A DNA stretch of 42,263 nucleotides from assembly GCA_001823055.1 (NCBI GenBank), contig MHTH01000006.1:1-42263 (forward strand). Reading direction: 5' to 3'. This DNA comes from Candidatus Vogelbacteria bacterium RIFOXYB1_FULL_42_16 (GTDB taxonomy: Bacteria > Patescibacteriota > Minisyncoccia > Phycocordibacterales > XYD1-FULL-46-19). A program made the translations under genes and the position numbers. This document shows positions 28,951 to 32,840 of this stretch, one piece after another. Each line of letters starts with the position of its first letter. The first letter of the stretch is position 1. The notes under the pieces are model-generated. The model had not been told where the DNA came from. It did not search any database and saw only the letters and a program-made list of their open reading frames with translations.

Positions 28951-29763
28951 TTACAACGGGCTCTTGATATTTTTCAGCGCCGGATTGGTCACATGAGTGT
29001 AAATCTGCGTCGTACGGATATTGGCGTGACCCAAGAGTTCCTGAACGAAACGAATATCAGTGCCATTTTCCAATAAATGCGTAGCGAATGAATGCCGTAA
29101 ACTATGAAAAGTGGCTTCTTTATTGACGCTAGACAGTTTCAAAGCTCTTTCAAAAACCATTTGCGCTGTCCGTTCGGTTAGCTTGCCACCTCGTTCGCTC
29201 TCAAAAACGAAATCATCACCCGATTTGCCGGCAATTAAATTTCTCAAATTATTGACTAGCTTGTCCGGCACCAAAGTTATTCGGTCTTTCTTGCCCTTAG
29301 CTTCTTTAAGATGGATAGTAAGTTCTTCTAAATTCAAGTCCCTGACTTTCAAATTGATGGCTTCGCTTACTCGCAAACCGGCGCCGTAAGACAATGTTAA
29401 TAGTAAAAGGTGTTTGGCATTTTTAACTGTTGCAAGTAAATCCTGTATTTCCTGACGACTCAAGACAACTGGTAACGATTTATTGCGTTTGGCAAATCTG
29501 ATATTAAATGTCTCCGATGATCTGATTACATCATGATAAAAATATTTGATAGCATTGAGATAGAGGTTAATGGTTTGCGATGAGTAATCCTTGTCTTGTT
29601 TTGATAATAAATATTCTCTAATATTGCCTTGATCCAATTTGTCTAAATTTGATTGTTTATAATTAAAATAATCCTCCAAGCATGATAAATAAGCATCGAT
29701 TGTCTTAGGGCTGTAATTGCGTATTTTTAGCTCCGTTTTTACTCGTTCTAATAATTGTTGCAT
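28951..29763 (-). CDS. Tyrosine recombinase (short integron-integrase-like / Xer-like)
   Basis: RNYSPKTIDAY N-terminal SAM-like domain; catalytic R (GLRVSE), K (KGKKDR), HxxR (HSLRH), H (LGH), Y (TTQIYTHV); 270 aa. Confidence 0.93.
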   Translation of the reverse strand: MQQLLERVKTELKIRNYSPKTIDAYLSCLEDYFNYKQSNLDKLDQGNIREYLLSKQDKDYSSQTINLYLNAIKYFYHDVIRSSETFNIRFAKRNKSLPVVLSRQEIQDLLATVKNAKHLLLLTLSYGAGLRVSEAINLKVRDLNLEELTIHLKEAKGKKDRITLVPDKLVNNLRNLIAGKSGDDFVFESERGGKLTERTAQMVFERALKLSSVNKEATFHSLRHSFATHLLENGTDIRFVQELLGHANIRTTQIYTHVTNPALKNIKSPL

Positions 29764-29845: not shown

Positions 29846-29854
29846 CAAAACTAT

Positions 29855-29875
29855 TCGCATAGAAACTAGTTGGAC
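29855..29875 (+). other. attI-like primary recombination site
   Basis: TCGCATA-GAAACTA-GTTGGAC: the GTTRRRY core is complementary to GTCCAAC at the end of cassette 1; TCGCATA matches the right arm of attC2; no upstream hairpin arm. Confidence 0.7.
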
Positions 29876-29940
29876 GAAATAGCAAAAACCTCTTTACTTT
29901 TTATTAAAATTTTGACAGTTTATTATTAATCATACAAAAT

Positions 29941-30363
29941 ATGAAGACACCAGACCAAATGGTACCTTATCTAAAGGAGAAAAAAATGGACATCGAGAAA
30001 AAAGAGTTGCACCAGCCAGTCCTTCATATTTTAAAGGAAACGGCAGAAAAGTTTCGCTCTTTAGACCAGGAAGCAGATGTAGCCCTTCAAAGCAAGCGTG
30101 ACACTGCAACCTATAAGCAAAAACTTGAAGAACGAGCGAAACTTTTAATCAATCTTCCAAATCTTTTGTCGGGTAAATTGGAAGACCTTGATTCAGAAGT
30201 TAAGCAAAGAATTGTGCGTGATATTGAATGGTTTGCAACAAGTGCAAATGAAGCGTTGGAGAATAATAATGGTTTTGCGCTTGGAGTACTGCTCACGCAC
30301 CAAGGTAGTAAAAATACCGACAAAAACGATTTGGAAGAATTGATTGCCTTGCTTGAAAAATAA
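29941..30363 (+). CDS. Cassette 1 ORF: helical hypothetical protein
   Basis: Single ORF filling the cassette 29869-30597; charged helical composition; no recognised family. Confidence 0.75.
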   Translation: MKTPDQMVPYLKEKKMDIEKKELHQPVLHILKETAEKFRSLDQEADVALQSKRDTATYKQKLEERAKLLINLPNLLSGKLEDLDSEVKQRIVRDIEWFATSANEALENNNGFALGVLLTHQGSKNTDKNDLEELIALLEK

Positions 30364-30408
30364 ACTGTCAAAATTTCTTTTTTAATCGGAGTCGGCTTTT
30401 GCTACATC

Positions 30409-30604
30409 GTCCAACACGGGATAAGCGGTTCAGGATTGGCACTCATTTTATAAAATAATGTGTGTGCCAATCCTTCTCCCAAATTCGTTTCCCTTTTATT
30501 TCAAATACATCAATGATTAGTGTGTTTAAAATAATTGAGAAGTGTATATCAAGTTTAACAAATTAAATCGGGAAACGAACTTCGCTTATCCCGATACGTT
30601 ATAT
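30409..30604 (+). other. attC-like site 1 (196 nt)
   Basis: GTCCAAC-A-CGGGATAAGCG ... CGCTTATCCCG-ATAC-GTTATAT, with two internal hairpins. Confidence 0.8.
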
Positions 30605-30679
30605 GAAATAATGAAAAATTCTTTTTGCCCTACTGGGCAAAATTAATCGGGACAAATTTATTTTTAAAATTAAAATATT

Positions 30680-31345
30680 ATGAAAAAAATCGCAACTATC
30701 GTTTTAGTTATTGTGCTTTTAATCGTAGCTGGCACATTATCATTTTTAATATTTAACAAGCAAAAACCAAATAACCAAATTTCTTTAACTGGTATTGATT
30801 CATCACAAATCAGGCCGGAAATAAAAATTTATCTTGATGAATTATACGACAGCGAAATTACATCAATAGAACACACAACCGATAGTATAGAGGAAAGCAC
30901 AAGAAGGTTTCCTGATAATCCTAAAATTTTTGAAGCTGGCAGATTTAAAGTTGTTCTTAATAATGACGGCGATAAAAAAGTAATGATTTTTCAAACCGAA
31001 GAAAAAGTAGGCCATATCGCGCCAGTTATTCCCGGTAAAACTGATGTTGGCGGCTATGTTGAAATTCAAAGAAATCCAGAAAGTGACAATTCCGAGGATA
31101 TAGCGCATACGACCCAAAGTATTGAAAATCAAGATAAATTAAACAATATTGCTGATTTAAAACTAAATGAATTTGAACTGGATTATTTAATTAGAATATT
31201 GTACAAAAAGTTTGAAAAACCATTGACTGATGAGCAGGCGCAAAATTTAAATGAAATTAAAGATTATGCCCTGGCGATTAAATTTAGTGGCAGGGATGGC
31301 ATAACCCAATATCATAATAGTTTGGTTAATGAATTAAAAAAATAA
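30680..31345 (+). CDS. Cassette 2 ORF: N-terminally anchored exported protein
   Basis: MKK + hydrophobic helix then an acidic soluble domain; fills cassette 30598-31488. Confidence 0.75.
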   Translation: MKKIATIVLVIVLLIVAGTLSFLIFNKQKPNNQISLTGIDSSQIRPEIKIYLDELYDSEITSIEHTTDSIEESTRRFPDNPKIFEAGRFKVVLNNDGDKKVMIFQTEEKVGHIAPVIPGKTDVGGYVEIQRNPESDNSEDIAHTTQSIENQDKLNNIADLKLNEFELDYLIRILYKKFEKPLTDEQAQNLNEIKDYALAIKFSGRDGITQYHNSLVNELKK

Positions 31346-31399
31346 ATTTGTCCCGATGAATAATTCGCTAATCGCGAATTAAGAATTTTTCATTACATC

Positions 31400-31495
31400 A
31401 TATAACAGCGTGTATGCGGTTCGTGCTTGGCTCCGCCAAATACTCGCCCATATCCGCCTAAATCGGCGGACATCGCATACACGCGAACGTTAGGC
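31400..31495 (+). other. attC-like site 2 (96 nt)
   Basis: ATATAAC-A-GCGTGTATGCG ... CGCATACACGC-GAAC-GTTAGGC. Confidence 0.82.
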
Positions 31496-31528
31496 GAAAT
31501 TTAAATCCTCACTTAACCCATTCAATTT

Positions 31529-31834
31529 ATGAAAAAATATTTACTAATAGCATTTATCTTTTCCGCATTAGTATTGTTGATAGTTTTCGTATTTTTTAAG
31601 AAGGACTCTTTATCAAAAAAATCTGCCACGCCACTAAATAAAGAAATTCTTATTGAGTCATGTCACCAAACGGGTGGTACTTGGAAAGAAGAATCTAATC
31701 CTTGCGAACCTACTTGCGACTATCAACGTAAAAAATTAAAAGGTGAGAAGCTCACTTGTATTGCTCTGGTAGTGCCTAATTGCGAATGCGAAAAAGATAA
31801 ATGCTGGAATGGATCAAGTTGTGAGCCACTTTAA
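31529..31834 (+). CDS. Cassette 3 ORF: membrane-anchored eight-cysteine protein
   Basis: MKK + TM, then C..GGTW...C...C...C...C.C...CW...C (8 Cys). Confidence 0.78.
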   Translation: MKKYLLIAFIFSALVLLIVFVFFKKDSLSKKSATPLNKEILIESCHQTGGTWKEESNPCEPTCDYQRKKLKGEKLTCIALVVPNCECEKDKCWNGSSCEPL

Positions 31835-31849
31835 CCGGATTTAAACATC

Positions 31850-31927
31850 GCCTAACACGGCATATACGGTTTCATTACATTACACCCATATTGCTATTGC
31901 AACATCGTATATGCCGAAACGTTAACT
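31850..31927 (+). other. attC-like site 3 (78 nt)
   Basis: GCCTAAC-A-CGGCATATACG ... CGTATATGCCG-AAAC-GTTAACT. Confidence 0.8.
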
Positions 31928-31931
31928 CAAA

Positions 31932-31970
31932 CAACAAGCTTGGGAGAAAGATATTCTCCCAAGCTTGTTG
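31932..31970. terminator. 17-bp perfect hairpin between the array and the convergent SIMPL gene
   Basis: CAACAAGCTTGGGAGAA-AGATA-TTCTCCCAAGCTTGTTG. Confidence 0.65.
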
Positions 31971-31988: not shown

Positions 31989-32840
31989 CTACTTTAGAGC
32001 GTAGCGCACATTGACCGTCACCTCGATTTCTTGCGAACCAGCCTCGATAGCTGGCGCTGATTCAGCCACCATAGCATCACCGCCCATGCCTAGACCAAGG
32101 CTCTTGGCATACATCGGAATCGGTGAACCATATTCGTCAATAGCCAGAATTCTTCCTAATGATATGCCACTTTCTTTAGCCAGACGTTTGGCCTCAATTT
32201 TAGCTTTGGCAATCGCTTCAGCTTTGGCCAAGAGACGCGCGCCGGCCGGATCGTCCAATTCAAAACGCAATTGCGAAACATTATTCGCACCGTTAGTCAC
32301 CACGCCGGACAACAAAGTGCCGAGATTTTTTTGTTCAAAATCACGCACAGTTACCTCGACAGTATTGTTAAAACTATAACCGACAATATCAGCCGGTGGA
32401 CAAGGTTGCGGTTCGGCCAACCCAAAAGTCGGGGCACCAGCAGAACCACCGCTTGTGGCCAGACCAATACTAACGACCCCGCGGTTACCACAAGCATAAC
32501 TTTGATAGCGAGGTTCCATCGAATAACCAGTGGTTTTAATGTCTTCTTTTGGTACACCCTGCTTTTTTAGAAAAGCTACGATCTTATTTGATCGATCGTC
32601 GTTATCTTTTTTCGCTTTGGCAATATCTTTTCCACCCTCGGTTTTAATCGAATAAGAAAAGCGAGCGACATCCGGCTTGGCAATGACTTTACCAATACCA
32701 GTAATAGTGATCGCCGGACTATTCAAGGCCGTGGACTTGGCGTAGGCATCGGCATAAATAAAAACTCCCACCGCTCCAACGATCAAGGCCAGAGCCTTGA
32801 TGCCAGTGACAATCATTTTAATTTTTTCTTCTTTGTTCAT
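31989..32840 (-). CDS. SIMPL (DUF541) domain protein
   Basis: TM, ITITGIGKVIAKPDVA, GANNVSQLRFEL, AIAKAKIEAKRLA, IEAGSQEIEVTVNVRY. Confidence 0.9.
   Translation of the reverse strand: MNKEEKIKMIVTGIKALALIVGAVGVFIYADAYAKSTALNSPAITITGIGKVIAKPDVARFSYSIKTEGGKDIAKAKKDNDDRSNKIVAFLKKQGVPKEDIKTTGYSMEPRYQSYACGNRGVVSIGLATSGGSAGAPTFGLAEPQPCPPADIVGYSFNNTVEVTVRDFEQKNLGTLLSGVVTNGANNVSQLRFELDDPAGARLLAKAEAIAKAKIEAKRLAKESGISLGRILAIDEYGSPIPMYAKSLGLGMGGDAMVAESAPAIEAGSQEIEVTVNVRYALK

Follow-up and report, generated by a model that had tools for sequence, protein, structure and literature searches.

A probable integron-like gene-capture platform in Patescibacteria with its own family of attC-like sites

In Candidatus Vogelbacteria bacterium RIFOXYB1_FULL_42_16, a tiny inhabitant of groundwater, a tyrosine recombinase gene diverges from three small genes, each ending in a conserved foldable site (S1, S2 and S3). 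The locus raises the question of whether this is an integron, and how it could work as one with a recombinase that lacks the insertion specific to integron integrases (IntI). The stretch analysed, hereafter the window, is the 42,263-nucleotide contig MHTH01000006.1 (assembly GCA_001823055.1), contig 6 of a 611-kb genome that is 94.65% complete; the names of its nearest protein relatives place it in the Patescibacteria (candidate phyla radiation, CPR). Our answer, in which we have good confidence, is that the locus is a small chromosomal integron-like gene-capture platform, that its attC-like sites belong to a distinct family widespread in Patescibacteria, and that the folded bottom strand of such a site would rebuild a core of two 11-bp arms around a 6-bp centre (11-6-11). 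This answer is carried by what was observed of the locus layout, the cassette permutation signature, the covariation of both site stems, the absent IntI insertion and the joint occurrence of sites and recombinase.

The original prediction, made from the letters of this DNA, had described three sites of one build. S1, S2 and S3 all follow the formula AAC-A-[11-bp stem]-GTT...CCCAWAT-[hairpin]-ACWT-[stem]-RNAC-GTT at the places it gave and nowhere else in the genome, as a strict pattern returned these three matches alone from 611 kb and a reversed-pattern control none. All three lie on the plus strand. The S1 core (30413-30600) opens with AAC (30413-30415), a single A (30416), the 5' arm of the 11-bp stem, called P1 (30417-30427), and GTT (30428-30430), followed by a hairpin, P3, and CCC; a long second stem, P2, leads to ACTT (30579-30582), the 3' arm of P1 (30583-30593), ATAC (30594-30597) and GTT (30598-30600). 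The S2 core (31404-31491) runs through AAC (31404-31406), A (31407), P1 (31408-31418), GTT (31419-31421), an insert (31422-31446) and CCC (31447-31449) to ATAT (31450-31453), P2 (31454-31469), ACAT (31470-31473), the returning arm of P1 (31474-31484), GAAC (31485-31488) and GTT (31489-31491). In the S3 core (31854-31923), whose tail AACTCAAAC is atypical, the same parts are AAC (31854-31856), A (31857), P1 (31858-31868), GTT (31869-31871), an unstructured insert (31872-31884), CCC (31885-31887), ATAT (31888-31891), P2 (31892-31901), ACAT (31902-31905), the second P1 arm (31906-31916), AAAC (31917-31920) and GTT (31921-31923). A covariance model built from 31 sites, R1, recovered exactly these three from the window, at 81.1 bits for S1, 94.8 for S2 and 80.1 for S3. 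Single-strand folding with DNA parameters gave z-scores of -2.7 to -3.9, with the bottom strand folding better. P1 is perfect in each site and different in sequence in each. At the base of P2, where AWAT faces ACWT, S1 has A-T as its second pair and the other two sites have T-A, a single compensating change in line with the covariation that had been claimed for this element; the third position is an invariant A opposite C, and deeper in P2 the three stem sequences are unrelated.

Around these sites the locus has the layout of an integron, as do other loci: a divergent recombinase gene, an adjacent attI and same-oriented cassettes. The recombinase gene (28951..29763, minus strand) encodes 270 aa. 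Direct reading of the sequence placed an attI-like double-stranded core of about 28 bp at 29853..29880 (plus strand), composed of a left arm with CGCATA, a centre of about 6 bp and a right arm TT-GGAC-GAAAT, with its GTT at 29869-29871; the attI-like GTTGGACGAAAT (29869-29880, plus strand) lies 105 nt upstream of the recombinase start codon. From this site start three promoterless-looking cassettes, all on the plus strand, delimited by the logic of crossover at GTT. Cassette 1 (29870..30598) holds an open reading frame (ORF) of 140 aa (29941-30363) and ends in S1, cassette 2 (30599..31489) an ORF of 221 aa (30680-31345) ending in S2, and cassette 3 (31490..31921) an ORF of 101 aa (31529-31834) ending in S3. 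The G+C content of the array region is 0.35, against 0.41-0.45 around it.

The sequences that flank the sites are those expected of exchanged cassettes. The tail ATATGA of S1 is complementary to the head TCATAT of S2, the tail AGGCG of S2 to the head CGCCT of S3, and GGAC after the GTT at 29869 to the head GTCC of S1. Across the family, the 4-nt tail of one site and the head of the next were complementary at all four positions in 55 of 88 neighbouring pairs, compared with 6 of 134 for the head and tail of the same site and 5.2% for random pairs. The core is thus an inverse one (..AAC / GTT..) whose post-GTT bases belong to the next cassette, as in integrons, and on sequence grounds the complementarity is the mark of circular permutation that recombination within AAC/GTT leaves on integron cassettes. 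One whole cassette is common to two genomes of different families at 82% identity, its aligned part beginning precisely with the TT of the GTT upstream. A 281-bp segment comprising a site and the 170 bp upstream of it (L033:15246-15526 and L052:9306-9586) is 99.6% identical between two further genomes of different families, which points to very recent transfer. Contigs from two groundwater runs of one other study match the right flank of the window (0 and 15 differences) and carry unlike sequence beyond 31919, a divergence point 2 nt from the G of the S3 GTT, and unitigs of the run containing the window's own strain break at 30601 and 31918. Two small joints skipping from 31422/31428 to 31470, with sides of 22-24 letters, were also seen and probably come from related sites in other organisms. 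Parts of the cassettes left uncovered by runs X12, X14 and X16 were given no weight as signs of absence.

The units between sites resemble cassettes as well: 171 of them have a median length of 818 bp, with the longest ORF on the array strand in 156, and arrays reach a dozen same-oriented single-gene cassettes. Ten cassette products examined include Fic, a DNA methylase, a D-Ala-D-Ala ligase, an LD-carboxypeptidase, a kinase-family protein and oxidoreductases, and three had no family. These features leave little room for the view that the sites are structured intergenic repeats (terminators, RNA elements or REP-like sequences) that lie near a recombinase by chance and have no part in recombination. 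Stable hairpins at the 3' ends of genes are what such repeats would look like, but they would not account for the head/tail signature, for breakpoints of shared cassettes and variant contigs at GTT, or for the strictly divergent placement of sites and recombinase. The hairpin is not followed by a run of T, and a search of the window sequence against Rfam at E <= 10 returned chance-level microRNA and snoRNA matches alone, none at gathering score. The mRNA-sense strand moreover carries the A.C mismatches of the sites, and this therefore speaks against an RNA element. We regard the intergenic-repeat explanation as scarcely credible.

How far the sites extend was followed in 401 genomes of the phylum, one of them (G154) unpublished. 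The strict pattern gave 58 matches in 33 genomes (reversed control, 4); none of the other 23 genomes sampled from the class of the window had it, so that its distribution is patchy and mobile-looking. A scan for structure only (AAC-N-11-bp stem with at least 10 pairs ... N4-GTT) yielded 55 matches, compared with 1 in shuffled sequence. Orthologues of the recombinase (40-77% identity, E <= 1e-60) were present in 40 genomes; 20 genomes had both sites and recombinase, 13 sites only, 20 the recombinase only and 348 neither, an odds ratio of 26.8. R1 found 120 matches in 365 kb of loci and 30 more near recombinase genes of genomes negative for the strict pattern. Outside the window, 20 of 27 recombinase loci had at least one R1 site, all of these sites on the opposite strand and upstream of the start of the recombinase, and at 6 of the 7 site-less loci less than 1.6 kb of upstream sequence precedes the contig end. 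The less biased subset, recombinase-positive and pattern-negative genomes, had sites at 10 of 17 loci. In G324, a genome of the window's family, locus L055 carries a recombinase 77% identical to that of the window together with an attI, in another genomic context and with two cassettes that differ from those of the window. Alignment between the two loci is confined to the recombinase and about 120 bp upstream and the flanks are not syntenic, and therefore no empty-site comparison is possible. Orthologues interrupted by in-frame stops (1 TAG or 3 TAA, respectively), at G052:C12:9320-10126 and G188:C26:19993-20796, are possibly decaying copies, whether beside arrays or away from them.

An independent set of sites was obtained by listing matches to the 3' half of the pattern and confirming them with R1; it holds at least 150 sites from at least 73 loci. 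The remaining 7 of the 80 listed 3'-half loci had no R1 support and were set aside as chance matches; they include records of Zobellia, Mucilaginibacter, Pirellulaceae, Leptospirales and Micrarchaeota. Confirmed sites occur on contigs labelled as archaea (DPANN or other; L086, L114, L133 and L154), and also at L079, L095, L124, L139 and L146 and under several 'Gammaproteobacteria' labels, with Omnitrophota and Bdellovibrionales among the labels. The genomes with sites that are not labelled CPR measure 0.8-2.7 Mb, and several encode recombinase homologues of 41-56% identity. Mis-binning, mislabelling or real cross-lineage spread may each lie behind these labels.

Is the folded form conserved? 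The claim of a perfect 11-bp stem that changes in sequence while keeping its pairing was borne out in S1-S3 and in the wider family. In 51 distinct pattern matches, for which pairing was not required, P1 forms 11 of 11 pairs in 26, 10 in 11, 9 in 6, 8 in 6 and three or fewer in 2; in a set of 106 sites it forms all 11 pairs in 61 and 10 in 31. Among the 106 listed 3'-half matches, 69 are preceded by an AAC-N-11-mer that departs from the complement by one mismatch at most (control, 0 of 106), a fair test because the 3'-half pattern left the 5' arm unconstrained. In the 150 listed sites, 91.5% of pair cells are standard, compared with 68.3% after shuffling and 30-41% when the partner was slid, and double-sided changes occur at all 11 pairs of P1 and at 8 of 9 pairs of P2. 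Conservation is concentrated in the A after AAC (147 of 148), the C before GTT (140 of 148), CCC before AWAT (136-141 of 150), G-(T/C)-T after P1, and GAAAT four bases after GTT. CCC-AWAT, ACWT and GAAAT are each conserved at 90% or more in the family, so that the CCC-AWAT/ACWT element persists in further examples that had been chosen with regard to neither CCC nor AWAT. The conserved three-way junction proposed earlier stood in this part only. The third helix is absent from S3 and optional family-wide: in 97 sites with a located P2 base the insert between P1 and P2 measures at least 13 nt in 91 and 0-2 nt in 4, and 53 of the 91 longer inserts fold on their own. In 98 of 106 sites one A makes up the whole 5' spacer; on the 3' side the usual spacer is the 4-nt NNAC. 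An alternative helix, in which the GTT after P1 pairs with the AAC of AACWT, was rejected, as its T has changed to C without compensation in 42 of 150 sites, whereas 148 of 150 retain the partner A. A subfamily of sites is marked by a recurrent P2 loop of 13 nt with the form TCCGCTWYGCTMC (for example at L033:7055-7166 and L047:2498-2598), found in 16 of 97 by a strict regular expression and in more by eye; CGCTC- or CACTC-like words recur in inserts that form no hairpin.

The two strands of a site are not equivalent. The original prediction noted a fixed top-strand A.C in the P2 base, which on the bottom strand is a G.T wobble; it is kept in 146 of the 150 listed sites, and two further positions of the same type (A.C or C.A on top, G.T below) were found beside AAC/GTT (137 sites) and in the outer R box (109 of 150). 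Minimum free energy was lower for the bottom strand in 100 of 106 sites, by 2.74 kcal/mol on average. In the bottom-strand folds the R box is extended by a G.T pair, a 3-nt bulge lies on the 5' arm only, and P1 stacks coaxially on P2. As had been supposed, the bottom strand is favoured by these features as the strand that would be folded and recombined.

Strand-specific pairing also bears on another proposal, namely that recombination takes place on ordinary duplex DNA at the 3' end of the site (3' stem arm - RNAC-G - TT-n4-GAAAT), as in plasmid modules flanked by Xer sites, with the hairpins incidental or extruded as cruciforms. Both arm-like motifs do fall within one duplex in the 3' half of each site, and Xer-type enzymes are described as normally acting on duplex DNA. 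Such a reaction would have no need of the 5' arm, but 19 of the 20 variable pairs in P1 and P2 show covariation; only for a single folded strand would the three fixed A.C / G.T positions be meaningful; and the distance from CGCATA to GTT is 9 nt in the duplex compared with 7 at attI and 6 in the folded form. We therefore consider recombination of the duplex distinctly unlikely. The 'dif modules' of Acinetobacter plasmids are gene modules bounded by Xer-type 11-6-11 sites; those sites are plain 28-bp duplexes in alternating orientation and are not known to have a hairpin, array polarity or a dedicated recombinase.

What, then, would the recombinase recognize in a folded strand? A clue comes from attI. 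Upstream of about 22 of 25 recombinase genes we found the consensus (A)TTCG[C/T]ATA-n-AAAC-nA-GTT-n4-GAAAT; the shorter motif NATAnnAAC-nA-GTT-n4-GAAAT recurs 62-107 nt upstream of the start, at 19 of 25 loci by regular expression (3 of these misplaced) and at 22 of 25 by eye. In our reading this region has a centre of about 6 bp between two 11-bp arms that are partly inverted. The motif of the left arm is found again in the sites as ACWT-CNSWTAY, made up of the P2 base and the seven distal bases on the 3' side of P1. Read in this way, the folded bottom strand of a site would rebuild a double-stranded 11-6-11 core as at attI. One 11-bp arm would be the R box (ATTTC-n4-AA|C paired with GTT-n4-GA), carrying the cleavage point. 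The 6-bp centre would consist of a C:G pair, a G.T wobble and the four variable proximal pairs of P1, with a 3-nt bulge (TNY) on the cleaved strand only. The second 11-bp arm would combine the seven conserved distal P1 pairs (RTAWSNG) with the four pairs of the P2 base (AWAT/ACWT, with its G.T on the bottom strand) and would carry the CGCATA-like motif, as the left arm of attI does. CCCAWAT/ACWT would then be the outer part of a recombinase arm and not a separate junction element. The GTT...CCC insert, with or without P3, would interrupt this arm on the 3' ('') strand, roughly where the extrahelical bases of canonical sites are located. Such a core would explain the 11-bp length of P1, the lack of conservation outside its distal part and the conservation of AWAT/ACWT. 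Strand choice and the limit to a single strand exchange may be coded by the site itself, through bulge, wobbles and insert: with a bulge on one side only, no second cleavage site would be correctly spaced, and the reaction could be limited to the exchange of one strand. For canonical integrons both tasks are assigned to the I2 helix of IntI and its recognition of extrahelical bases, the limit to one exchange in the account of Escudero 2020.

Much of this would also be expected of an ordinary integron. Like canonical integrons (class 1 and the Vibrio superintegron), the present loci combine a divergent recombinase gene, an adjacent attI and single-ORF cassettes in one orientation; an inverse core, AAC...GTT, with variable bases that are part of the neighbouring cassette; and imperfect hairpin sites with a better-folding bottom strand, a variable distal structure and clusters without a nearby recombinase. 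It might thus be argued that the sites are ordinary attC sites whose peculiarities, a partly paired spacer and a branched terminal structure, fall within the known variability and which standard tools would file as attC clusters. The window indeed contains a canonical R box, GCCTAAC ... GTTAGGC; orientation, cassette size and permutation signature are as in integrons; and the AAAC-GTT end occurs in 3 of 8 class-1 sites. Long, branched terminal structures are noted for sedentary integrons in Nivina 2016. In the description given there, each arm of a canonical attC site contains 5-6 unpaired spacer bases, the terminal structure varies, and on the '' arm G16 and T23/24 are extrahelical, as is position 20 in some cases.

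The sites of the window depart from this description, as the original prediction held. Instead of 5-6 unpaired bases on each arm, the spacer is 1 nt opposite 4 nt, or in the folds a 3-nt bulge on one arm only plus a G.T pair. No base is unpaired inside the 11-bp stem where G16 would be: with the numbering checked on the aadA1 site, whose unpaired G falls at 16, positions 9-19 form a continuous helix and unpaired bases begin at 20, in the GTT...CCC insert. Four class-1 sites folded in the same way displayed both spacer loops and 3'-arm bulges. The conserved motifs differ as well, GAAAT, RTAWSNG and CCC-AWAT/ACWT here; CCC-AWAT, ACWT and GAAAT, conserved at the level given above, are foreign to the canonical description, and the single-A 5' spacer followed by a fully paired stem characterizes 98 of 106 sites. 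Neither a class-1-trained nor a family-trained model detects the sites of the other. R1 found none of the four class-1 sites, its best match being 12.9 bits and elsewhere. In place of the IntegronFinder attC covariance model we used a surrogate built from 8 class-1 sites, which scored its training sites at 41-68 bits and a held-out class-1 site at 33.9 bits. On 93.8 kb of window and CPR array sequence, with 3 sites in the window and 25 or more of the family in three other loci, it gave at most 13.1 bits (E 0.86); S3 scored 10.7 bits (E 3.8), and S1 and S2 were not among the matches. Where it did align sites of the family, it took the A and the first four stem bases as spacer, which is in keeping with an ordinary attC. 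Taken with the absence of the IntI-specific domain from the recombinase, these differences make an ordinary integron with ordinary attC sites unlikely.

The recombinase itself points the same way. It carries the Pfam domains Phage_integrase and SAM_4 and matches NF040815 at 224.6 bits (cut-off 220). Against TIGR02249, the IntI family model, it scored 210 bits (cut-off 265) in two separate stretches, compared with 127.8 bits for a housekeeping paralogue, and both it and that paralogue exceed the cut-off of the XerA family model. Its best match in the PDB is VchIntIA (2a3v, IntI4; 6.4e-41), tied with Pyrococcus XerA (7.2e-41). The alignment to VchIntIA breaks from query residue 178 to 194 and from IntI4 residue 182 to 241, leaving 15 query residues against IntI4 residues 183-240; about 43 residues are absent at the place of the IntI-specific insertion. 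The recombinase thus lacks the additional domain of IntI (the I2 region around patch III), and the suggestion of an integrase without the I2 helix agrees with both the split alignment and the sub-threshold TIGR02249 score. An AlphaFold2 model built on 24 close homologues reached a mean pLDDT of 66.6 (mostly 50-70 in the catalytic domain) and a pTM of 0.36, too weak for a fold search or for argument. A domain of this kind is described as necessary for activity, and IntegronFinder requires a match to an IntI-specific profile to call an integrase (Ghaly 2022); the array-linked recombinase would therefore not be called one. Smyshlyaev 2021 describes a 'Cand' subgroup of Xer-related recombinases from candidate phyla, and that description draws no link to cassettes.

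Could the enzyme instead be the cell's chromosome dimer resolvase, with the 'attI' as its dif site and the cassettes as IMEX-like elements that hijack it in the form of folded single strands? The attI core does resemble an 11-6-11 site with partly inverted arms, the enzyme passes the XerA cut-off, and folded single-stranded mimics of dif are known from the CTX phage (Escudero 2020). A dimer-resolution system would be expected to have a near-universal enzyme and a site at the terminus, but GC skew stays below zero throughout the window and does not switch at 29.8 kb, and a separate XerD-like paralogue (328 aa, 35% identical) is encoded in the same genome. Because the array-linked enzyme is patchy (40 of 401 genomes) beside this near-universal paralogue (349 of 401), we regard it as an accessory, dedicated recombinase. 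The flanks are not syntenic in the sole genome of the same family that has the enzyme, and arrays of up to a dozen same-oriented single-gene cassettes also count against it. A Xer/dif system with IMEX-like elements is accordingly very unlikely here. The CTX phage attP(+)/IMEX system is nonetheless instructive: as set out in Escudero 2020, an I2-less Xer-type enzyme acts there on a folded single strand that mimics a duplex core, and the asymmetry of attP(+) limits the reaction to one strand exchange. The present system would share these traits. The two differ in that CTX/IMEX elements use XerCD at dif, whereas here a dedicated, patchy paralogue is linked to arrays, the target is not at a skew switch, and single-gene cassettes are stacked in arrays with a permutation signature.

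Archaeal integrons offer another comparison. Ghaly 2022 reports 6 IntIs for 539 attCs in metagenome-assembled genomes of uncultured small-genome lineages, and the present system shares with them cassette arrays in such lineages and few linked integrases. The archaeal IntIs are, however, reported to have the IntI-specific domain, and the archaeal attCs the bacterial folding structure; the supplementary DPANN site lists of that study might contain sites of the present kind. A full-text literature search found no description of cassette arrays or attC-like sites in CPR/Patescibacteria, supplementary tables lying outside that search.

Other features of the locus were noted as well. The products of cassettes 1-3 (140, 221 and 101 aa) matched no Pfam or NCBIfam family. 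The 221-aa and 101-aa proteins both have a hydrophobic N-terminus, and the latter is Cys-rich (10 Cys among the last 57 residues); they may therefore be small proteins that are secreted or sit in the membrane. Downstream of S3 a perfect 16-bp inverted repeat, AACAAGCTTGGGAGAA ... TTCTCCCAAGCTTGTT (31933-31969), lies before the stop of a convergent SIMPL-family gene (31989-32840, minus strand); it is terminator-like and had only chance-level Rfam matches.

Several points weigh against an integron-like platform working through a folded 11-6-11 core. A complementary P1 is absent from 40 of 150 R1 model hits. The cleavage point within ACGTT cannot be placed from the sequence because those bases never vary, and the register of the left arm of attI against P1/P2 is off by one base, which makes 11-6-11 a fit and not a measurement. 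Sporadic mismatches elsewhere favour the bottom strand only mildly (57 versus 32). The training sites of R1 had been selected by pattern, and any alignment fitted to the model is biased towards its structure; genomes of one phylum are non-independent samples, which bears on the odds ratio for co-occurrence; and the 13 pattern-positive genomes in the sites-only class have no recombinase at E <= 1e-60. Finally, the surrogate attC model rests on only 8 class-1 sites, and IntegronFinder may therefore still report some sites of the family.

Among the R1 hits without a complementary P1 are hybrid or decayed sites (for example L035:10189-10326, L037:6865-6970 and L073:12839-12947) in which P1 cannot form, its arms coming from different site types or having drifted. 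The hybrids may be products of homologous recombination between neighbouring conserved cores, which would freeze two cassettes together.

Overall, the idea of a different structural code matched to an integrase without I2 is supported at the level of sequence, each of its testable parts having held. A bolder version, which we put forward only tentatively, is that an I2-less integron-like lineage exists naturally and is widespread, that its sites are folded mimics of an 11-6-11 Xer-type core in which site asymmetries replace the role of I2, and that it represents either a pre-I2 stage of integron evolution that has survived or an independent invention from Xer; it may also cross into DPANN archaea that share its habitats.

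The acquisition of the I2 helix is held in Escudero 2020 to have enabled integrases to recombine folded single strands, and direct proof of this role is described there as lacking, since deletion of I2 kills IntI1. A natural system with the whole logic of an integron, no I2 and a site grammar of its own makes a question testable: is I2 needed for hairpin recombination, or can the information be carried by the site? As IntegronFinder requires an IntI-specific profile, such platforms would be missed in surveys or reduced to clusters of orphan sites. That gap would affect one of the largest bacterial radiations, and with it cassettes that carry varied accessory genes.

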